IMG/VR virus record: IMGVR_UViG_2609459856_000005
Coordinates: 1 to 10,550 of that record
Direction: 5' to 3' (one strand)
From: a virus
Taxonomy: Duplodnaviria; Heunggongvirae; Uroviricota; Caudoviricetes
DNA: 10,550 nucleotides
Of this stretch, positions 1 to 10,550 are shown in pieces (position 1 is the first letter of the stretch; each line of letters begins with the position of its first letter). The position numbers and the translations under genes are program-made. The notes under the pieces are model-generated. The model saw nothing but the letters and a program-made list of their open reading frames with translations. It was not told where the DNA came from and ran no database searches.

Positions 1-27
1 CCATCCGTTATTTGCGGAGGTGAGGCT

Positions 28-243
28 ATGAAATCCATGGACAAAATTTCAACGGGCATTGCCTACGGCACCTCCGCAGGCAGTGCTGGCTACTGGTTTT
101 TACAGTGGCTTGATCAGGTCAGTCCTTCACAGTGGGCTGCGATTGGTGTACTGGGGAGTCTGGTTCTGGGCTTCCTGACTTATCTGACAAATCTGTACTT
201 CAAAATCAGAGAAGACAAGCGTAAGGCTGCACGGGGAGAGTAA
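28..243 (+). CDS. Class II pinholin/antiholin, phage 21 S-like (71 aa, dual start)
   Basis: 71-aa ORF beginning MKSMDK (Met1 and Met4 in frame, the dual-start motif of phage-21 S giving a 71-aa antiholin and 68-aa holin). Two hydrophobic segments ([19 protein letters not shown] and [23 protein letters not shown]) and a charged C-terminal tail. GGAGGTGAGG Shine-Dalgarno upstream. Sits immediately upstream of a SAR endolysin. Confidence 0.9.
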
Positions 244-247
244 TTCA

Positions 248-598
248 ATGACTCAAAACTATGAACTGATTGTGAAAGGGATCCGCAATTTTGAGAATAA
301 AGTTACGGTAACTTTAGCGTTACGGGACAAAAAACGCTTTGACGGTGAAATTTTTGACCTGGACATCTCGCTGGACCGTGTTGAAGGTGCCGCGCTGGAG
401 TTTTATGAGGCAGCAGCCAGAAGGAGCATCAGACAGGTCTTCCTGGATGTTGCTGCCGGGTTATGTGAAGGGGATGAGCAGTCGCCGGAAAAGCGCCCCG
501 TAATTTTAGATGCGCAGAATGTTTGGATAACCTACAAAGGAAAGCTACCAGGAAGAATTACTGGTTCTCTGAAGACTCCTCCGGAATCACAACCTTAA
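248..598 (+). CDS. Lysis-cassette-associated hypothetical protein, YdfR-like (DUF1327), tentative
   Basis: 116-aa ORF with GGAGAG Shine-Dalgarno, wedged between holin and endolysin. From memory this matches the position and sequence type of ydfR in the Qin prophage of E. coli K-12 (essQ-ydfR-rrrQ order). No TM segment; soluble, mildly acidic. Family call is recalled, not searched. Confidence 0.75.
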   Translation: MTQNYELIVKGIRNFENKVTVTLALRDKKRFDGEIFDLDISLDRVEGAALEFYEAAARRSIRQVFLDVAAGLCEGDEQSPEKRPVILDAQNVWITYKGKLPGRITGSLKTPPESQP

Positions 599-661
599 GT
601 CACTGACCGGAACAGATAAACCTGTCCGTGGGCAGAAACCGATAAATCCTGATAAATATCC

Positions 662-1195
662 ATGAACGCAAAAATCAGATACGGCCTGTCGGCTGCCGTT
701 CTGGCACTGATTGCCGTCGGTGCGCCCGCGCCTGATATTCTCGACCAGTTTCTGGATGAAAAAGAAGGTAACCACACAACGGCATACCGCGATGGGTCCG
801 GCATCTGGACCATCTGTCGGGGTGCCACGATGGTGGATGGAAAACCCGTTTTTCCCGGTATGAAACTGTCGAAGGAAAAATGCGACCAGGTCAACGCCAT
901 TGAGCGTGATAAGGCGCTGGCATGGGTGGAGCGCAATATTAAAGTACCACTGACCGAACCACAAAAAGCGGGTATCGCGTCATTTTGTCCCTATAACATT
1001 GGCCCCGGTAAGTGTTTTCCATCGACGTTTTATAAGCGGCTGAATGCTGGTGATCGTAAGGGCGCATGCGAGGCGATTCGCTGGTGGATAAAAGATGGTG
1101 GGCGCGATTGCCGCATACGTTCAAATAACTGCTATGGACAGGTTATTCGTCGTGACCAGGAAAGCGCATTAGCCTGTTGGGGAATAGATCAGTGA
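662..1195 (+). CDS. SAR endolysin (T4-lysozyme-like muramidase, GH24; R21/RrrQ-like)
   Basis: 177 aa. N-terminal Gly/Ala-rich weakly hydrophobic signal-anchor-release segment ([18 protein letters not shown]). Catalytic triad spacing E35-x8-D44-x5-T50 ([16 protein letters not shown]), as in P1 Lyz and phage 21 R. Follows the pinholin as expected. Confidence 0.92.
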
Positions 1196-1659
1196 GCAGA
1201 GTCGCCGCGATTATTTATGCTCTGGTTATCTGCATCATCGTCTGCCTGTCGTGGGCGGTCAATCATTACCGTGATAACGCCATCACCTACAAAGAACAGC
1301 GTGATAAAAAAGTCAGTGAGCTGAAGCAGGTGACCGCCACCATCGCTGACATGCAGCAGCGTCAGCGTGATGTTGCTGCGCTCGATGCAAAGTACTCGAG
1401 AGAATTAGCCAATGCGAAAGCTGAAAATGAAACTCTGCGCGCTGATGTTGCCGCTGGTCGTAAGCGCCTGCGGGTCAATGCCAGTTGCTCCGCAGCCGTG
1501 CGTGAAGCCACCGGACCCACCAGCGTGGATAATGCAACCAGCCCCAGACTGGCAGACACCGCTGAACGGGATTATTTCACCCTCAGAGAACGGTTGATGA
1601 CGATGCAGAAGCAACTGGAAGGGGCACAGCTATACATTCGTGAGCAATGTCTCAGATAA
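1192..1659 (+). CDS. Rz: Rz i-spanin (inner-membrane spanin subunit)
   Basis: Protein [34 protein letters not shown]... is collinear with lambda Rz (N-terminal TM helix, coiled-coil periplasmic domain, C-terminal ...YIREQC). GTG at 1192 overlaps the endolysin stop (GTGA). The ATG at 1177 given in the ORF track lies inside the endolysin gene and is less likely. Confidence 0.88.
1412..1597 (+). CDS. Rz1: Rz1 o-spanin (outer-membrane lipoprotein), embedded in Rz in the +1 frame
   Basis: 61-aa [23 protein letters not shown]... with signal peptide and lipobox (VSAC, Cys20), a proline-rich mature part ([27 protein letters not shown]) collinear with lambda Rz1, lying entirely inside Rz in a different frame. 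Confidence 0.85.
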
Positions 1660-1814
1660 AAACCGGCCAAGGATAATCCGCTAAAGATTCGCCGGTGGCG
1701 AAAGAGAGCCAAGGTGTCAACCTACGCTATTACTTATGATAATGCAACAGACGAAGCGGGACATATTGGCGCATAACAAATCAGTGCAGGCTAACTGCAG
1801 GAAGAACTTAGGGC

Positions 1815-2081
1815 GTGAACGTAGAAAACCTAAGTAACGCACATTACATCTATAACGAGATGAAAGAGCTACAGCGACAGAAAGGTATACTGGAAAGTGG
1901 TGCAGGGCTTGGTGTGACAATCCAGTCTGCCTATCAATATAGTGCTTTTCTTGAGGCCATACGCCCGCATGCAGTTGCTGAACTTAACAGCCGTATTGAG
2001 GAAAAGAAATCCGCGCTGGTTAATTTGGGTGCTTCCTTCTCTATATACGAGCATAATAAGGCGGGTTGGAAACCCGCCTAA
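1815..2081 (+). CDS. Hypothetical protein (moron ORF, 88 aa from GTG; 73 aa if started at ATG 1860)
   Basis: Open frame in an AT-rich segment downstream of Rz; predicted soluble helical protein with no recognisable motif. Start codon uncertain. Ends at a hairpin shared with the convergent downstream gene. Confidence 0.45.
   Translation: MNVENLSNAHYIYNEMKELQRQKGILESGAGLGVTIQSAYQYSAFLEAIRPHAVAELNSRIEEKKSALVNLGASFSIYEHNKAGWKPA
2060..2078. terminator. Perfect 8-bp hairpin (GGCGGGTT-GGA-AACCCGCC) between convergent genes; possible bidirectional terminator
   Basis: Seen directly: GGCGGGTT at 2060-2067, loop GGA, AACCCGCC at 2071-2078. It overlaps the last codons of the + ORF and lies 8 nt from the stop of the minus-strand gene. 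No clean T-tract on either side. Confidence 0.45.
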
Positions 2082-2086
2082 AGCAC

Positions 2087-2626
2087 TTAGAAACTGCGTG
2101 GAGCTGTGGAAAGAATGGATGCCAGTTCTTCCTTCGATAAATCCCAGCTTCGATTTACAGCGTCAATTTTCTTACACTCATCAAGCATTGCGTTATAGAG
2201 ATGTTCTGTAAGTGAATGAGTATTGGCAATGGGCTGTTTCTGTTCGGGGAAGCGATCAAATTTCTGATACGCCTCAATGATACTGAAGTAATCGCATTCA
2301 TTATTACCGTCGAAACCTGGGAGCTGAATTGCCCCATCATGTATTTTTAGATGATGGTCACGGACTAATTCTTTTTGCTCGTCATCACTAAGTTTCCTGA
2401 AAGCATTGGAAAGTCCGCGATACATATTCAAGACAGCAGTAACAAAATCACGATCTTCTTTACTTGGTTCGTCAACATCCAAATGTGAATATTCGGCCTT
2501 GATAACCCAATCATTACCAGATGACACAGCATATTTAACAAGCTGTGGATCAATATCAGTTTCGATACCTAGGTGGATGGCAATGTCACATAACAAAATG
2601 GTATTGATTTTATCTTTAATATCCAT
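2087..2626 (-). CDS. Hypothetical cytoplasmic protein, possible YfbU-family (UPF0304) member; moron on the opposite strand
   Basis: 179-aa ORF on the minus strand with a strong Shine-Dalgarno (AGAGGG, 7 nt before ATG), AT-rich composition, no TM segment. Motifs MY..L......L.D and L.GFD...E..Y align with my recollection of E. coli YfbU; family call unverified. Confidence 0.8.
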   Translation of the reverse strand: MDIKDKINTILLCDIAIHLGIETDIDPQLVKYAVSSGNDWVIKAEYSHLDVDEPSKEDRDFVTAVLNMYRGLSNAFRKLSDDEQKELVRDHHLKIHDGAIQLPGFDGNNECDYFSIIEAYQKFDRFPEQKQPIANTHSLTEHLYNAMLDECKKIDAVNRSWDLSKEELASILSTAPRSF

Positions 2627-2764
2627 GAGTTAACCCTCTGAAGTAAAAAGTAATATCTACACCCGTTGGCTCATGAAGTCTATTGATCTGTCTCATATCA
2701 GCAGCAAATCTATTCCATGGAGATACTCAATGCAGGTCACCTTTGATTTATATAAGGGCGAAAC

Positions 2765-3115
2765 ATGCCAGCACTAATCCCACGCGCCTGCCGTAAGCGT
2801 GGATGTGCAGGTACAACCACAGACAGTTCTGGTTACTGCGATAAACATCGTGGCGAAGGATGGGTACAGCATCAACGCGGACTGAGCCGCCACCAGCGTG
2901 GCTATGGCTCGAAATGGGATGCCATACGTGCGCGCATACTGAAGCGTGATAATCATCTGTGTCAGAACTGCCTGCGCAATGGGAGAGCCGTTGAAGCCAG
3001 AACTGTGGACCACATCATTCCGAAAGCTCATGGTGGCACGGATGCAGACAGTAACCTGCAGAGTCTGTGCTGGCCCTGTCATAAAGCAAAAACAGCGCGC
3101 GAACGCATCAATTGA
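2765..3115 (+). CDS. HNH endonuclease (phage packaging-associated)
   Basis: 116 aa with N-terminal Cys cluster (CRKRGCAG...YCDKH) and HNH motif (DHIIPKAHGG...N...LCWPCH). Lies directly upstream of the terminase genes, as HNH genes do in HK97-like phages. Confidence 0.92.
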   Translation: MPALIPRACRKRGCAGTTTDSSGYCDKHRGEGWVQHQRGLSRHQRGYGSKWDAIRARILKRDNHLCQNCLRNGRAVEARTVDHIIPKAHGGTDADSNLQSLCWPCHKAKTARERIN

Positions 3116-3262
3116 TAACAGTTCCCATCTGTAGGGGAGGGGCGGGTCAAATCTCTGCAACCCTGGCTGCTCAGTACCGCCGCCTGACCCTTCCTCACAT
3201 CGCCGCAGGTTCGAAAACTTTTTTTGGAAATGTGAACAAACGATTGATAGGTAAGACCGATT
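3116..3262. other. Putative cos (cohesive end / terminase recognition) region
   Basis: Non-coding gap between the HNH and TerS genes, the place where cos lies in HK97-like genomes. Contains GC-rich blocks (GGGGAGGGGCGGG, CCGCCGCC), a T7 tract (3219-3225) and an IHF-consensus match (WATCAANNNNTTR on the minus strand, about 3237-3249). Exact cleavage site not identified. Confidence 0.4.
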
Positions 3263-3745
3263 ATGTCAGGACCTTCGAAACCCCCGCCACGCCTGCATTT
3301 GATACGAGGCAATCCCTCAAAGCGCCCCGTTAAAGACCCCAAAAAAACCGCTAAAAAGGATGAAAAAGGTCTTCCTAAAATTCCGCAGCATTTAGGGGCA
3401 CAGGGGAAGTACTGGTTCAGGCGAATGGCGGAAGAGCTGAATGCGGAAGGGATCATTTCTCAGCTTGATGCGCGTGCGCTCGAGTTGCTGGTGGAAGCCT
3501 ACACCGAATATCGGCATCACTGCGAAACACTCGATGTTGAGGGGTATACCTACCGCACGGAAACGCAGAGCGGTGATGTACTGATTAAGGCGCACCCCGC
3601 GGCGGCAATGAAAGCGGATGCCTGGAAGCGGATCCGGGCAATGCTTGCAGAGTTTGGTATGTCACCGGCAAGCCGGGCTAAAGTAAATATCGCCGGACCG
3701 GATGATGTTGATCCGCTGGCGGAGCTTTTAAAAGCGAGAGACTGA
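3263..3745 (+). CDS. Terminase small subunit (P27 family)
   Basis: 160 aa, basic N-terminus (LIRGNPSKRPVKDPKKTAKKDEKG) typical of P27-family TerS; stop TGA overlaps the TerL ATG (TGATG). Confidence 0.88.
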   Translation: MSGPSKPPPRLHLIRGNPSKRPVKDPKKTAKKDEKGLPKIPQHLGAQGKYWFRRMAEELNAEGIISQLDARALELLVEAYTEYRHHCETLDVEGYTYRTETQSGDVLIKAHPAAAMKADAWKRIRAMLAEFGMSPASRAKVNIAGPDDVDPLAELLKARD

Positions 3746-5502
3746 TGGCAAAAGTGGCTGACGGGATCCGCTACGCCGAACGTGTTGTCGCAGGAGAAAT
3801 TGTTGCTGGCGAATTTGTCCGCTTGGCCTGCCAGCGTTTTCTTGATGATCTGAAGTACGGCGAAGAGCGGGGGATTTATTTCAGTGAACCCCGTGCGCAG
3901 CACATCCTGAATTTCTACAAATTTGTGCCTCATGTAAAAGGGGCGCTGGCAGGCCAGCCCATTGAACTGATGGACTGGCATGTATTTATCCTCATTAATA
4001 TTTTTGGTTTTGTCATTCCGCTGGTGAATGAAGAGACCGGGGAAGTTGTCATGCGCAGCGATGGCAGCGGACGTCCGGTGATGGTGCGCCGGTTCCGGAC
4101 GGCGTACAACGAAGTCGCCCGTAAAAACGCAAAATCAACTCTGTCATCGGGTATCGGCCTGTATATGACGGGGGCAGATGGTGAAGGCGGTGCTGAGGTG
4201 TATTCAGCCGCCACCACGCGTGACCAGGCCAGAATTGTGTTTGAAGACGCCAAAAATATGGTCAGAAAAGCCCGGTCGACACTCGGGCGGTTGTTTGATT
4301 TCAACAAGCTGGCGATTTACCAGGAGCAGAGCGCATCAAAATTTGAACCGCTTTCCTCGGATGCAAACAACCTGGATGGTCTGAACATCCACTGCGCCAT
4401 TATTGATGAGCTGCATGCACATAAAACCCGCGACGTGTGGGACGTTCTGGAAACGGCAACCGGTGCCCGCCTGCAGTCCCTGTTATTTGGTATCACCACG
4501 GCAGGGTTTAACAAGGAAGGGATTTGTTACGAGCAGCGTGATTACGCCATCAAGGTATTGCGTGGCTATAACAGCGATGTGGAGGGCGCTGTAAAAGACG
4601 ACTCCTACTTTGCGATTATTTACACCCTCGATGAGGGAGATGATCCGTTTGATGAAACGGTCTGGCAGAAAGCGAATCCCGGCCTGGGCATCTGTAAACG
4701 CTGGGATGATCTGCGTCGCCTGGCGAAAAAAGCGAAAGAACAGGTCTCTGCGCGGGTGAATTTTTTTACCAAACACATGAATGTGTGGGTAACAGCAGAG
4801 TCTGCCTGGATGGACATGATTAAGTGGGAGAAGTGCGAATACATTGCCCCACGACATGAGCTGAAAACGTATCCCATGTGGGTCGGCGTTGACCTTGCTC
4901 ATAAGATTGATATCTGTGCGGCGGCAAAACTCTGGCGAACGGATAACGGGCATGTTCATGCCGATTTTAAATTCTGGCTTCCGGAAGGACGGCTGGAACG
5001 ATGCTCGCGGCAGCAGGCAGAACTTTACCGGAAGTGGGCGGAGATGGATAAGCTGATTCTGACGGATGGTGATGTTATCGATCATGCTCAGATAAAAAGT
5101 GACTTACTGGAATGGATTGGTGGTGAAAACCTCAGGGAACTGGGATTTGACCCGTGGAGCGCGATGCAGTTCAGCCTGGCACTGGCTGAAGAAGGGATAC
5201 CGCTGGTGGAGGTTCCGCAGACGGTTCGCAATCTGTCAGAGGCCATGAAGGAAACGGAATCACTGGTCTATGCCGGGCGTTTCCATCACAGCAATCATCC
5301 GGTCATGAACTGGATGATGTCTAACGTTACGGTAAAACCGGACAAAAACGACAATATCTTCCCGAATAAATCCACGCTGGAAGCCAAAATCGACGGCCCT
5401 GTTGCGATGTTTACAGCAATGAGCCGGATGCTGGTCAATGGTGGTGAACCGGAGCTGGATCTGTCTGAACATCTGGTCAGCGTGGGCATCCGTTCGCTTT
5501 AA
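3745..5502 (+). CDS. Terminase large subunit (HK97-type, Terminase_1-like ATPase/nuclease)
   Basis: 585 aa. Walker A-like RKNAKST (4120-4140), Walker B-like hhhhDE ([10 protein letters not shown]), C-terminal nuclease-domain length. Position after TerS and before portal. Confidence 0.95.
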
Positions 5503-5513
5503 CCGAGGTCATT

Positions 5514-5696
5514 ATGTTTCTGATAATTCTCGCGCCACTGGTGGGCGTGCTGGGTGCGCTTTTGCTGGCGTATGGTGCCTGGCTGATTTATCCCCCGGCG
5601 GGGTTTGTTGTTGCCGGGGTGCTGTGCCTGTTCTGGTCGTGGCTGGTGGCGCGATATCTCGACCGTACACAGCCGTCTGTCGGCGGAGGTAAATAG
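5514..5696 (+). CDS. Small hydrophobic membrane protein (60 aa, two predicted TM helices), function unknown
   Basis: [52 protein letters not shown]... with GAGGT Shine-Dalgarno 5 nt upstream. Its stop overlaps the portal GTG start, suggesting translational coupling. Confidence 0.55.
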
Positions 5697-6937
5697 TGTT
5701 CTTTTCGGGATTATTTCAACGAAAAAGTGACGCGCCGGTGACCACGCCAGCAGAGCTGGCGGATGCCATCGGGTTGTCTTACGACACCTATACCGGAAAG
5801 CAGATCAGCAGTCAGCGGGCCATGCGACTGACGGCGGTTTTTTCCTGCGTCAGAGTGCTGGCAGAGTCGGTCGGGATGTTGCCCTGCAATCTGTATCACC
5901 TGAACGGCAGCCTGAAACAGAGAGCCACCGGCGAACGTCTGCATAAGCTGATCTCCACGCATCCCAATGGCTATATGACGCCGCAGGAGTTCTGGGAGCT
6001 GGTGGTCACCTGTCTGTGCCTGAGGGGAAACTTTTACGCCTACAAAGTGAAAGCATTTGGCGAAGTGGCTGAACTGCTGCCCGTCGATCCCGGTTGTGTG
6101 GTACCGAAGCTTAACAGTCGCTGGGAGCCGGTCTATCAGGTCACATTCCCGGACGGTTCCACGGATGTACTGAGCCAGGAAGATATCTGGCATGTGCGCA
6201 CGCTGACGCTGGACGGTCTGGTGGGACTGAATCCCATCGCCTATGCCCGCGAGGCAATATCGCTGGCAGCAGCGACCGAAGAGCACGGGGCCAGACTGTT
6301 CAGCAATGGTGCGGTGACGTCCGGTGTGTTGCGTACAGAACAGACGCTGTCGGATCAGGCTTATGAGCGCCTGAAGAAAGATTTTGAGGAGCGTCACACC
6401 GGGCTTGGCAATGCTCACCGCCCGATGATCCTTGAGATGGGGCTGGACTGGAAGTCGATGGCGCTGAACGCCGAGGACAGCCAGTTCCTGGAAACCCGCA
6501 AGTTTCAGCTTGAAGAAATCTGTCGTCTGTTCCGGGTGCCGTTGCACATGGTGCAGAACACCGATCGCGCCACCTTCAACAATATCGAAGAGCTGGGGCT
6601 GGGATTTATCAACTATTCACTGGTGCCGTATCTGACCCGCATCGAACAGCGGATCAACACCGGACTGGTACGAAAAAGTAAGCAGGGCGTTTATTACGCC
6701 AAATTTAACGCCGGGGCGTTACTGCGCGGGGATATGAAGTCCCGTTTTGAAGCCTACGCCACCGGGATCAACTGGGGAATTTACTCTCCCAATGACTGCC
6801 GCGACCTGGAAGATATGAATCCGCGTCCCGGTGGGGATGTCTATCTCACACCGATGAACATGACCACGAAACCATGCGATGGCAGTAAAGCCGGTAAGCA
6901 GAAGGATAACGCCAATGCAGACGAAACAACGTCTTGA
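5696..6937 (+). CDS. Portal protein (HK97 family)
   Basis: 413 aa. GTG start at 5696 preceded by GGAGG (5685-5689). Size and order (TerL-portal-protease-MCP) are those of the HK97 head module. Confidence 0.93.
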   Translation: MFFSGLFQRKSDAPVTTPAELADAIGLSYDTYTGKQISSQRAMRLTAVFSCVRVLAESVGMLPCNLYHLNGSLKQRATGERLHKLISTHPNGYMTPQEFWELVVTCLCLRGNFYAYKVKAFGEVAELLPVDPGCVVPKLNSRWEPVYQVTFPDGSTDVLSQEDIWHVRTLTLDGLVGLNPIAYAREAISLAAATEEHGARLFSNGAVTSGVLRTEQTLSDQAYERLKKDFEERHTGLGNAHRPMILEMGLDWKSMALNAEDSQFLETRKFQLEEICRLFRVPLHMVQNTDRATFNNIEELGLGFINYSLVPYLTRIEQRINTGLVRKSKQGVYYAKFNAGALLRGDMKSRFEAYATGINWGIYSPNDCRDLEDMNPRPGGDVYLTPMNMTTKPCDGSKAGKQKDNANADETTS

Positions 6938-7565
6938 TGTACCGCTGAGTCTGAAATCTGTCAGTGACTCCGGTGAGTTTGAAGGGTATGGCTCCGTCTT
7001 TGGTGTAAAGGACAGCCACGATGATGTGGTGATGTCCGGGGCATTTGCTGCTTCACTGCGGGCGTGGAGTGACAGAAAAGCGTTACCTGCGCTGCTCTGG
7101 CAGCACCGCATGGATGAACCCATCGGTGTTTACACCGAAATGAAGGAAGACGATGTCGGGCTTTACGTCAGGGGACGGTTGCTTATTGATGATGATCCCC
7201 TCGCAAAACGCGCACATGCACACATGAAGGCCGGTTCGTTAACCGGCCTTTCTATTGGGTACGTCCTGAAAGACTGGGAATACGACCGGAGCAAAGAAGC
7301 CTTTCTGCTGAAAGAAATCGACCTCTGGGAAGTCAGCCTGGTGACGTTCCCGTCTAACGACGAGGCGCGGATCAGCGACGTCAAGAACGCACTGGCCCGC
7401 GGGGAAATCCCCGAACAGAAAAAAATCGAAAGAGTCCTGCGTGATGTCGGACTCTCCCGTACCCAGGCCAAAGCATTCATGGCCGGGGGCTATGGCGCAC
7501 TGTCCCTGCGCGACGCTGAGGATGTGGGCTCTGCACTGAATGCACTGAAAAATCTAAACTTCTAA
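6915..7565 (+). CDS. Prohead maturation protease (HK97 family, peptidase S78-like)
   Basis: Protein MQTKQRLDVPLSLKSVSDSGEFEGYGSVFGVKDSHDDVV... between portal and major capsid genes. Start chosen at ATG 6915 (AAGGA upstream, 23-nt overlap with portal) rather than the in-frame ATG 6879, which has no Shine-Dalgarno. Confidence 0.88.
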   Translation: MQTKQRLDVPLSLKSVSDSGEFEGYGSVFGVKDSHDDVVMSGAFAASLRAWSDRKALPALLWQHRMDEPIGVYTEMKEDDVGLYVRGRLLIDDDPLAKRAHAHMKAGSLTGLSIGYVLKDWEYDRSKEAFLLKEIDLWEVSLVTFPSNDEARISDVKNALARGEIPEQKKIERVLRDVGLSRTQAKAFMAGGYGALSLRDAEDVGSALNALKNLNF

Positions 7566-7579
7566 TCAGGAGAAATACG

Positions 7580-8785
7580 ATGGCGGTTGATATTAAAGAT
7601 GTCGAACAGGTCGCGCAGGAGCTGCAGCAGAAGTTTGACGACTTCAAAGCAAAGAACGACAAGCGCGTGGATGCGATTGAGCAGGAAAAAGGCAAACTTG
7701 CCGGGCAGGTGGAAACCCTGAACGGGAAACTCAGCGAGCTGGAAAACCTCAAAAGCGATCTTGAAAAAGAGCTGCTTGAGCTGAAACGTCCGGCAGGTGG
7801 TGCGCAAAATAAACTGGCCACCGAGCATAAAGAAGCGTTTGTGGGCTTCCTGCGTAAAGGCCGTGAAGACGGTCTGCGCGATCTGGAGCGCAAGGCATTG
7901 CAGGTGGGCACCGATGAAGACGGTGGCTATGCCGTGCCGGAAGCACTGGATCGCAACATTCTCACCCTGCTGAAAGATGAAGTGGTGATGCGCCAGGAAG
8001 CCACGGTGATCACCGTTGGTGGTTCCGACTACAAAAAACTGGTGAATCTGGGCGGCACGGCTTCCGGATGGGTTGGCGAGACTGACGCGCGCTCCCAGAC
8101 CGCCACCTCAAAACTGGGACTGATTGAACCTTTCATGGGGGAAATCTACGGTAACCCGCAGGCCACCCAGAAAATGCTGGATGATGCCTTTTTCAACGTG
8201 GAAGCATGGATCAACAGCGAGCTGGCAACCGAATTTGCCGAACAGGAAGAAATTGCCTTTACCACCGGCGATGGTACCAAGAAGCCGAAAGGGTTCCTAG
8301 CGTATGAATCCACTGATGAAACCGATAAGGTCCGGGCGTTCGGCAAACTTCAGCATATTGTATCCGGCGAAGCGACGGCGGTGACCGCAGACGCCATTAT
8401 CAAACTGATTTACACGCTGCGTAAGGCACACCGCACTGGCGCGAAGTTCATGATGAACAACAACAGCCTGTTTGCCATCCGTCTGCTTAAAGACAGCGAG
8501 GGTAACTATCTGTGGCGTCCGGGGCTGGAACTGGGGCAGCCGTCCTCTCTGGCGGGTTACGGTATCGCTGAAAACGAACAGATGCCGGATATCGCCGCTG
8601 ATGCGAAAGCCATTGCATTTGGTAACTTCAAACGGGGTTACACCATCGTTGACCGTATCGGCACCCGCATTCTGCGTGACCCGTACACCAATAAACCGTT
8701 TGTCGGTTTTTATACCACCAAGCGCACCGGCGGGATGCTGGTCGATTCGCAGGCCATCAAACTGCTGAAGATTGCAGCGGCGTAA
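7580..8785 (+). CDS. Major capsid protein (HK97 fold) with N-terminal delta/scaffolding domain
   Basis: 401 aa. AGGAG Shine-Dalgarno. The first ~100 aa are a charged coiled-coil (EQVAQELQQKFDDFKAKNDKRVDAIEQEKGKLAGQVETLNGKLSELENLKSDLEKELLELKR) typical of the HK97 gp5 delta domain removed by the prohead protease. Directly downstream of the protease gene. Confidence 0.95.
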   Translation: MAVDIKDVEQVAQELQQKFDDFKAKNDKRVDAIEQEKGKLAGQVETLNGKLSELENLKSDLEKELLELKRPAGGAQNKLATEHKEAFVGFLRKGREDGLRDLERKALQVGTDEDGGYAVPEALDRNILTLLKDEVVMRQEATVITVGGSDYKKLVNLGGTASGWVGETDARSQTATSKLGLIEPFMGEIYGNPQATQKMLDDAFFNVEAWINSELATEFAEQEEIAFTTGDGTKKPKGFLAYESTDETDKVRAFGKLQHIVSGEATAVTADAIIKLIYTLRKAHRTGAKFMMNNNSLFAIRLLKDSEGNYLWRPGLELGQPSSLAGYGIAENEQMPDIAADAKAIAFGNFKRGYTIVDRIGTRILRDPYTNKPFVGFYTTKRTGGMLVDSQAIKLLKIAAA

Positions 8786-8790
8786 TCACT

Positions 8791-8820
8791 CAGGGGCGCG
8801 GAACCGCACCCCCTGTTCTG
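8791..8820 (+). terminator. GC-rich imperfect hairpin immediately after the capsid gene (possible attenuator or mRNA-stabilising stem-loop)
   Basis: CAGGGGCGCGG-AA-CCGCACCCCCTG followed by TGTTCTG; the stem has one mismatch or bulge and the T-tract is poor. Confidence 0.3.
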
Positions 8821-8834
8821 ACGGGTGAAGAATC

Positions 8835-9023
8835 ATGATCCTGAAACAAGATCTGAAATGGTCACCGGACGGTATGCGTGTTGAGATTATTCGGGCCGGT
8901 GAGTATGAAGATAAAGAATTACCCGAACGGGTACGCGAAATTGCCACTGCAGCTGGGATTGTCTCTGATAAGAGAACACCTGTTGCGCGGGGGGCTGATA
9001 AGTCTAAAAAACAGCATTCATAG
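8835..9023 (+). CDS. Small hypothetical protein (62 aa) between capsid and head-tail connector genes
   Basis: ORF MILKQDLKWSPDGMRVEIIRAGEYEDKELPERVREIATAAGIVSDKRTPVARGADKSKKQHS has protein-like composition and fills the 250-bp gap. Shine-Dalgarno weak. The overlapping minus-strand ORF 8786-9034 looks like a shadow frame. Confidence 0.4.
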   Translation: MILKQDLKWSPDGMRVEIIRAGEYEDKELPERVREIATAAGIVSDKRTPVARGADKSKKQHS

Positions 9024-9034
9024 AGGTTGCCCAA

Positions 9035-9340
9035 ATGATGCCCACTCTGGAAGAGCTTCGTGTTCAGTGCCGGATTGATGATGACAATGAACAGGAGAAT
9101 TCTCTTCTTATGATGTATCTGGCTGCTGCCAGGGAAGAGGCTGAAAAGTTTTTAAACCGGACGCTTTACGATGAAACTGTTTCTGAGCAGGATACGACCG
9201 GGCTTGTAATAACACCTCTGATAAAACTGCGTCTTATGCAACTGGTTGGCTACTGGTACGAGAACAGGGAAATGCAGGATGCAGTGCCTGATTTTTTCTA
9301 TACCGGACTGCGGATGTATCGGTTTCATCCCGGAACATAG
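9035..9340 (+). CDS. Head-tail connector protein (gp6-like)
   Basis: 101 aa, MMPTLEELRVQCRIDDDNEQENSLLMMYLAAAREEAEKFLNRTL... is the characteristic N-terminus of gp6-like head-tail connector proteins. AGAGGT Shine-Dalgarno; position after the capsid gene. Confidence 0.85.
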   Translation: MMPTLEELRVQCRIDDDNEQENSLLMMYLAAAREEAEKFLNRTLYDETVSEQDTTGLVITPLIKLRLMQLVGYWYENREMQDAVPDFFYTGLRMYRFHPGT

Positions 9341-9348
9341 GAGGATTC

Positions 9349-10550
<1,202 letters not shown>

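Follow-up and report, generated by a model that had tools for sequence, protein, structure and literature searches.

A YfbU-like gene is optional cargo at the lysis-terminase junction of lambdoid prophages and a candidate phage-defence factor

What does a gene of the YfbU family do between the lysis and packaging genes of an Escherichia coli prophage, on the strand opposite to both? The question was raised by the IMG/VR record IMGVR_UViG_2609459856_000005 (Caudoviricetes), whose positions 1 to 10,550 were analysed here as one stretch, called the window. The window comprises the late region of an E. coli prophage that is lambdoid and HK97-headed; its lysis and head genes are all on the plus strand. 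A preliminary description, made from the sequence alone, had pointed to a minus-strand open reading frame (ORF) of 179 codons, hereafter the YfbU-like gene, as a possible divergent YfbU-family copy in a moron slot and a target for defence or exclusion screening. We regard both its cargo status and its membership of the YfbU family as close to certain, and a role in phage defence is proposed with less confidence.

The reading frame ran from ATG to TAA exactly at 2087-2626, as had been described. A Shine-Dalgarno sequence, GAGGG (2638-2634), was located 7 nt before the ATG; it is a good one, and calling it strong was slightly generous. The opposite orientation of the gene was borne out, the holin, lysozyme, Rz/Rz1, HNH, TerS, TerL, portal, protease and capsid genes all being on the plus strand, and so was its low guanine-plus-cytosine (GC) content of 39.3%, compared with 50.7% in the lysis genes and 53.9% from HNH through capsid. 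Homologues down to 48% identity kept a length of exactly 537 nt with zero indels and zero stop codons, and the ratios of nonsynonymous to synonymous substitution rates (dN/dS) against three relatives were 0.11, 0.13 and 0.07. Because the length was kept without indels or stops and dN/dS was 0.07-0.13, the YfbU-like gene is a real gene, and purifying selection acts on it. Neither the sequence nor the helical AlphaFold2 model showed an evident signal peptide or transmembrane segment, no dedicated prediction having been run. The product is predicted from this model to be a soluble, mostly helical, two-domain protein and is apparently cytoplasmic.

To place the gene among related prophages, comparators were found by searching with the segment from Rz to TerS. 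In EC958 (ST131), the same slot between Rz and HNH contained iss, a bor homologue, in antisense orientation (L027, 1109-1402), and in strain C31 it contained an antisense GNAT acetyltransferase gene (L028, 1262-1747). In Ecol_881 the slot was empty, the Rz stop and the HNH start being 43 bp apart (L029, 1083-1126). The shared flanks had 82.6-97% nucleotide identity over Rz and about 99% over HNH; for EC958 and the window the values were 82.6% and 98.7%, respectively. Homology to EC958 and Ecol_881 was lost at about 1640-1658 and homology to C31 at 1799, and homology to all three resumed exactly at 2765, the HNH start codon, so that the breakpoints define the cargo as 1660-2764. The moron slot named in the preliminary description was therefore confirmed by its iss, GNAT or absent contents in sister prophages. 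The YfbU-like gene is optional cargo and dispensable for the phage, and an essential lytic or packaging role is excluded by the alternative contents between shared flanks.

The lysis-terminase junction is also the slot of bor in phage lambda. Like the bor and iss morons, the YfbU-like gene follows Rz directly, runs antisense to the late operon and precedes the packaging genes. Bor and Iss are outer-membrane lipoproteins of about 97 residues that confer serum resistance. The YfbU-like protein is unrelated to them, helical according to its model and apparently cytoplasmic. As a separate observation, all cargo genes found in the Rz-HNH slot were antisense to the late operon, and this polymorphic slot is worth mining.

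A copy at least 95% identical at the nucleotide level was found in 225 of 5,426 complete E. coli genomes and was always chromosomal; the carrier genomes listed were largely human and poultry isolates. More distant homologues, 83% to 50% identical, held the same position and orientation in assemblies and metagenomes, including Enterobacter, Providencia and Superficieibacter records; the slot recurs in these genera and in Escherichia. Recurrence at moron positions of other prophages was examined with a scan of IMG/VR, in which 177 viral contigs had a relative and 78 loci were kept, and 20 marker proteins were searched over these loci with tblastn. Many of the 78 loci were near-identical, and the independent contexts are fewer than this count. 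The order terminase (minus), YfbU-like gene (plus) and lysis (minus) was found at 44 loci, and a further 30 had one recognised flank, in a consistent position. Three loci contained no recognised marker and one was odd (L106). The antisense pattern included a separate branch just 28-39% identical to the YfbU-like protein. The lysis modules around the homologues were mutually unrelated (S21 holin with lysozyme and Rz; holin_8 with GH19; LysC with DUF2570), as were the packaging modules (HNH with P27 TerS; Nu1-like with GpA). In lambdoid phages, YfbU-family genes have been captured at the lysis-terminase junction time and again, and in one orientation.

A different observation concerns the prophage with the copy assigned by NCBI to Superficieibacter (L015/L016), in which the lysis-terminase junction also held a Ser/Thr protein kinase and a PP2C phosphatase beside the YfbU-like gene (8990-10488 and 12538-13170 cover the noted genes) and a HicA/HicB pair was located just upstream of the lysis cassette.

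Since the gene always adjoined the small-terminase end of the packaging module (HNH/TerS or Nu1/cos), it might be thought an accessory of the lytic cycle acting in cos recognition, packaging or lysis timing. We find this scarcely credible, and the empty slot largely refutes it. Sister prophages whose flanks were 94-99% identical carried unrelated genes or nothing, the gene was on the strand opposite to the late operon and accompanied two unrelated terminase systems, and family members were also found on plasmids and in non-phage islands.

The assignment to the YfbU family (UPF0304, PF03887) was supported by a Pfam score of 41.8 bits (E 1.5e-10; gathering threshold 25), with residues 46-172 aligned to profile positions 46-164 of 166. 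A profile built from 36 homologues matched K-12 YfbU with 95.8% probability (E 7e-9), and the predicted model of the 179-residue protein had the two-domain helical YfbU fold seen in PDB 1WPB. BLASTP of the YfbU-like protein against K-12 YfbU gave E 0.078, by itself not significant, and phmmer against PDB sequences found no YfbU match and just a chance match to stathmin. The sequence is too diverged for single-sequence methods, so that comparison of folds was needed, and the family similarity is established by profile and structure methods and not by pairwise alignment. The three motifs that the preliminary description had matched to E. coli YfbU were accurate when compared with K-12 b2294, and BLASTP paired exactly those segments. 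The family was thus recovered by both hidden Markov model and structure, and the gene did not prove to be a conserved structural or packaging accessory. The assignment itself is not new, since PGAP already names the gene in RefSeq as 'YfbU family protein' (WP_021522774.1); two deposited phage records annotate it as 'hypothetical protein'. PHROG 6084, to which no function is assigned, matched the protein end to end, and a fold search of BFVD returned one viral protein of the same fold, which is unannotated.

The copy had been called divergent, and this was correct: it is a distant paralogue of chromosomal yfbU and not an orthologue. The NCBIfam equivalog model NF003936 gave 32.8 bits against a cut-off of 90, so the protein fails this orthologue model, and the gene resides in a prophage, whereas chromosomal yfbU lies between hxpA and yfbV in K-12. 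E. coli YfbU (b2294, UPF0304, PDB 1WPB) and the YfbU-like protein share the Pfam family, the two-domain helical fold and the motifs GFD...E, TH and Y..ML. They differ in length (164 and 179 residues, respectively), are only 15-22% identical, and are encoded by a core chromosomal gene and by prophage cargo, respectively. Residues G104, F105, D106, E110, H137 and Y144 were invariant within the subfamily, and across 54 diverse members G104 was invariant and F105, D106, G107, N108, E110, N135, H137 and M147 were nearly so. The motifs LLCDI, GNxWA, (F/Y)PGFDGNNE, N-S-H and Y-x-R-M-L, common to most members, were all present in the YfbU-like protein, whereas chromosomal E. coli YfbU has lost several family motifs and does not have C13-D14, W40 and N108-N109, which are conserved in most of the family. 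The YfbU-like gene belongs to a large mobile-element branch of the family, apart from the chromosomal yfbU orthologues.

Two other assignments were rejected. The Cfr10I/Bse634I restriction endonuclease family (PF07832) scored 19.1 bits against a threshold of 27, and there was no structural support for a nuclease fold. A HEPN RNase was considered from an R-x4-H-like motif in most family members, and was dismissed since the YfbU-like protein has P132 at that place and no HEPN fold. In alignment A4, at the positions of residues 132-137, about 33 of the 54 diverse members read R-x-x-N-[SACT]-H, mostly R-(D/E)-L-N-S-H, which resembles the HEPN R-x4-H. The subfamily of the YfbU-like protein has P-I-A-N-T-H in its place, and no HEPN fold was detected in it.

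Outside this subfamily, a profile search of 1.84 billion cluster representatives returned 2,077 clusters at E <=0.001, and a motif-seeded scan of species-representative genomes, started from 16 sequences, found relatives in 301 genomes spread patchily over many phyla. A 5.4-kb Psychrobacter plasmid carried a YfbU-family gene and hardly any other cargo. On the 8-kb mobilisable Acinetobacter lwoffii plasmid pAL_065-6, one small ORF separated a member from a nearby Abi_2 (AbiD/F-type) gene (L024, 593-1582 and 2123-2620). The remaining cargo of this plasmid consisted of an alcohol dehydrogenase gene and two small hypothetical ORFs. A Photobacterium island carried a member together with GmrSD and AbiC, a P2/HP1-like Yersinia prophage carried one at its cargo end, at two insertion sites, and others were located among transposases and HicB and PIN toxin-antitoxin modules. 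Among 148 neighbours of 37 loci, PADLOC models for TIR/bSEFIR, PDC-S15, PDC-S66, mad2, type I restriction-modification and AbiEi/AbiEii were matched, and Pfam matches included DUF932, MerC and FRG. The presence of family members on mobile elements and beside abortive-infection (Abi), restriction-modification and TIR genes is suggestive of a defence role.

Three architectures of the domain were found, of which the stand-alone form of the YfbU-like gene is one. In a large branch of the family, at 15 of 38 loci and in Photobacterium, across many Proteobacteria, the YfbU domain was encoded second in a two-gene operon, behind a conserved partner of about 166 residues (L110, L111, L113, L115, L117, L121, L129, L131, L132, L145, L150, L157, L159, L160 and L177, about 5470-5990 in each, and L020, 6482-6988). 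The partner belonged to no Pfam family, and its hydrophobic N terminus is probably a transmembrane helix; the mean column identity in alignment A7 was 57%. The partner and its YfbU gene may form an undescribed two-gene system. The operon-type genes and the YfbU-like gene of the window, which has no such partner, share the same domain and the same conserved motif. In the third architecture, an N-terminal extension of about 50 residues was present in P0070, P0074 and P0099, and also in P0100 and P0228 (227-240 residues). The extension of the first three matched the ribbon-helix-helix (RHH, CopG) domain just under threshold, with a best score of 20.4 against 20.5 bits, and P0100, when scanned, gave no RHH match. 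This suggests that the RHH-fused members could be DNA-binding, self-regulating versions of the domain.

The intergenic gap upstream of the YfbU-like gene, up to the divergent HNH gene, was 138 bp. About 65-75 bp before the ATG were conserved among relatives with 79-94% identical proteins, and the sequence diverged farther upstream. The conserved block contained the Shine-Dalgarno sequence, GATATT and ATAGACTT; its candidate -35 and -10 elements (Table 1) are separated by a suboptimal spacer of 19 nt. Conservation of this block suggests that the gene may have its own promoter there. On the 3' side, the RNA hairpin of a terminator-like element had a folding energy of -20.1 kcal/mol (z -2.5 versus shuffles); a terminator scan of the minus strand near the gene did not call the hairpin, and its U-tract is weak. 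In four loci (L042, L044, L064 and L076), just the last 12 codons (36 nt, with the hairpin) of an 88-residue ORF convergent with the YfbU-like gene remained beside it, and the hairpin within these 12 codons probably terminates the YfbU-like transcript.

The 88-residue ORF had no Pfam match. It occurred solely beside copies at least 88% identical and is co-cargo of close relatives; it was absent from L002, L062 and L067 and from the prophages with iss, GNAT or an empty slot. The ORFs at its position in other prophages were not homologous. The YfbU-like gene is without a conserved partner gene, and the mobile unit is the single gene together with the conserved 5' block and 3' hairpin, its putative expression signals. 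A conserved partner or antitoxin was rejected, as the small ORFs on the 3' side were unrelated between prophages and the 88-residue ORF accompanied close copies only. A type II toxin-antitoxin module was also rejected, as the protein had no RHH domain and the gene had no conserved neighbour or adjacent antitoxin gene. The small ORFs upstream of three family members (on the Acinetobacter plasmid, on a Kosakonia plasmid and in Oleiagrimonas) gave no RHH match.

These results bear on the idea of a toxin-like addiction or stabilisation module, in which a self-regulated toxin would penalise loss of the prophage or plasmid and phage defence would be a by-product. Such a module would suit the mobilisable plasmids of 5-8 kb that carry little besides a family member, the near-threshold RHH fusions, which resemble antitoxins or autoregulators (20.4 vs 20.5 bits), and the members found among HicB and PIN genes. 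The prophage subfamily, however, has neither an antitoxin-like partner gene nor an RHH domain, and a single gene is stably kept in the 225 genomes, where a stand-alone constitutive toxin would not be tolerated. We consider this explanation improbable.

A closer precedent for function is Kamadhenu, a single-gene abortive-infection system of 180 residues with the YfbU fold on the Lactococcus plasmid pUCCL624_130 (PMC11381338, Grafakou et al. 2024; PMC12184496, Mosterd et al. 2025). All Kamadhenu escape mutants altered G22 of a Sak-like phage single-strand annealing protein (PMC12184496), and phage DNA replication, transcription and translation were unaffected by the system (PMC13064643). Like Kamadhenu, the YfbU-like protein is a stand-alone YfbU-fold protein of about 180 residues (179); its gene has no partner and lies on a mobile element. 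Kamadhenu comes from a plasmid of a Gram-positive host and has demonstrated abortive infection, whereas the YfbU-like gene is prophage-borne in E. coli and known from its sequence.

The candidacy for defence or exclusion is strengthened by this precedent. By analogy, we give about an even chance (roughly 0.5) to the reading that the YfbU-like gene is a phage-defence factor, acting as a Kamadhenu-like single-protein abortive-infection or superinfection-exclusion system. The gene would be transcribed in the lysogen from its own promoter, against late transcription, and convergent late transcription would damp its expression during the lytic growth of its own prophage. The trigger for its product would lie in the recombination machinery that an infecting phage brings in, either a single-strand annealing protein or the DNA intermediates made by it. 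A late step of infection would be blocked or the cell arrested, possibly through the conserved polar motif formed by C13-D14, W40, G104-F105-D106-G-N-N-E110, N135-x-H137 and Y144.

Several points weigh against the defence reading. The iss/bor and GNAT genes of the same slot do not serve phage defence, and occupancy of the slot is therefore no sign of a defence role. The scan for defence neighbours was run without a control set, which leaves the neighbourhood link suggestive, and at least one family member was located among housekeeping genes. The Kamadhenu link is drawn from Pfam family, fold, size and single-gene architecture and not from a demonstrated close relationship: tblastn of PLSDB with three different queries gave no Lactococcus match, and a profile search of 5.8 billion proteins gave no Lactococcus-named protein among the 120 matches listed. 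A consensus promoter scan of the minus strand near the gene found no site at threshold, and the sigma-70 match was poor. The claim that E. coli YfbU is a 'death protein' comes from a single study. A scan of the YfbU-like protein against PADLOC-DB v2 also gave no match; this result is uninformative, because Kamadhenu post-dates the database and is absent from PADLOC and DefenseFinder (PMC13335696).

According to one report, E. coli YfbU is made selectively once MazF is induced, and cell death following DNA damage requires it (PMC2646832). The prophage copy could accordingly be a lysogenic-conversion factor that tunes the stress, DNA-damage or cell-death response of the host, to the benefit of the lysogen in the gut or under SOS-inducing stress. 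The slot is a classic one for host-fitness cargo, with iss/bor and GNAT there in sister prophages, and the carriers listed came mostly from humans and poultry. The identity to host YfbU is just 15-22%, though, and C13, D14, W40 and N108-N109 are lacking in host YfbU, so that a shared activity is not assured; the tiny plasmids and the Abi, restriction-modification and TIR neighbours fit conflict systems better. We judge this explanation unlikely.

The same protein could instead be a counter-defence decoy that co-assembles or competes with host YfbU and blocks a host suicide pathway during induction or infection, and this we hold to be highly improbable. Host YfbU has been described as part of a large complex that it forms and as a 'death' factor, and inhibitory homologues of host proteins are common in phages. 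Anti-defence genes, however, normally stand in early operons and this gene is antisense in the late region; it has diverged very far from host YfbU; plasmids and chromosomal islands of hosts from many phyla carry homologues; and the one tested homologue, Kamadhenu, defends and does not counter-defend.

The defence reading can be extended to the whole family, in a form that we find doubtful. The prophage YfbU-like proteins would correspond, in enterobacteria, to Kamadhenu and form a widespread family of single-protein abortive-infection systems that defence databases lack, sensing the annealing or recombination proteins of incoming phages via an undescribed catalytic or ligand-binding pocket (C13-D14, D106, E110, H137 and Y144). 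Core YfbU would be a domesticated, motif-degenerate descendant, and a single immune mechanism would underlie the stand-alone form, the operon with a membrane partner and the RHH fusion.

Should the defence reading be true, an immunity factor made of one gene, so far unrecognised and missed by defence-finding tools, is present in about 4% of complete E. coli genomes and in many prophages of the Enterobacter, Providencia and Klebsiella type. If the gene is inert against phages, it is an ordinary prophage gene that RefSeq already names correctly. Functional data for the family beyond E. coli YfbU come from one Lactococcus plasmid gene, and an E. coli member offers a tractable route to the mechanism of the YfbU fold as well as a handle on the role of chromosomal YfbU, a question since the structure of 2004. 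Whatever the function, the lysis-terminase junction is a recurrent cargo slot, useful for mining accessory genes. New here are the proof of optional cargo status, the consistent antisense site at the lysis-terminase junction across unrelated backbones and family branches, and the three domain architectures.

The features of the window are listed in Table 1.

Table 1. Genes and putative signals in the 10,550-nt window (+, plus strand; -, minus strand;., no strand)
Feature	Position	Strand	Remarks
S21-type holin	28-243	+	lysis gene
DUF1327/YdfR	248-598	+	
Lysozyme	662-1195	+	lysis gene
Rz spanin gene	1177-1659	+	Pfam Phage_lysis E 2e-49; left flank, end of lysis cassette
Rz1 embedded in Rz	1412-1597	+	Pfam Rz1 E 1.4e-18
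Variable cargo (moron) slot, Rz end to HNH start codon	1660-2764	.	42.1% GC
88-residue ORF, phrog_5415	1815-2081	+	PHROG match E 2e-38; convergent with YfbU-like gene
Terminator-like element	2053-2079	-	9-bp GC-rich hairpin 2079-2059, then UAUUAU; begins 7 nt past stop codon
YfbU-like gene, 179 residues	2087-2626	-	ATG 2626-2624, TAA 2089-2087
Conserved 5' block	2627-2690	-	Shine-Dalgarno GAGGG 2638-2634; candidate -10 GATATT 2657-2652; candidate -35 TAGACT 2682-2677
HNH endonuclease gene	2765-3115	+	Pfam HNH E 1.9e-16; right flank, start of packaging module
P27-family small terminase gene (TerS)	3263-3745	+	Pfam Terminase_4 E 2.5e-25; right flank
Large terminase (TerL)	3745-5502	+	
Portal	5696-6937	+	
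S78 prohead protease	6879-7565	+	
HK97-type capsid	7580-8785	+	
Head-tail connector	9035-9340	+	

Some further observations were made on the phage itself. Between the large terminase and portal genes, a strongly hydrophobic ORF of 60 residues (5514-5696, plus strand) had no Pfam match, and the equivalent gap in TUM14697 was annotated with a 60-residue hypothetical protein (L001, 15428-15610). A small membrane protein within a head module is unusual. At 9349-10550, an IS3-family element interrupted the head-closure gene about 10 codons in; its OrfA (9411-9758) matched HTH_Tnp_1 with E 5.9e-13, and the window agreed letter for letter with the intact TUM14697 prophage as far as about 9378 and diverged beyond. 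With this insertion in the head-closure gene, the present prophage copy is probably defective for virion assembly, and the YfbU-like cargo gene is intact. In carrier prophages, three or four tRNA genes were also clustered in the interval from the Q antiterminator to the holin (L001, 9603-9912; L188, 1268-1574), just upstream of the region equivalent to the window, with Ile, Lys, Thr and Gly tRNAs in one and Met, Thr and Gly tRNAs in the other.

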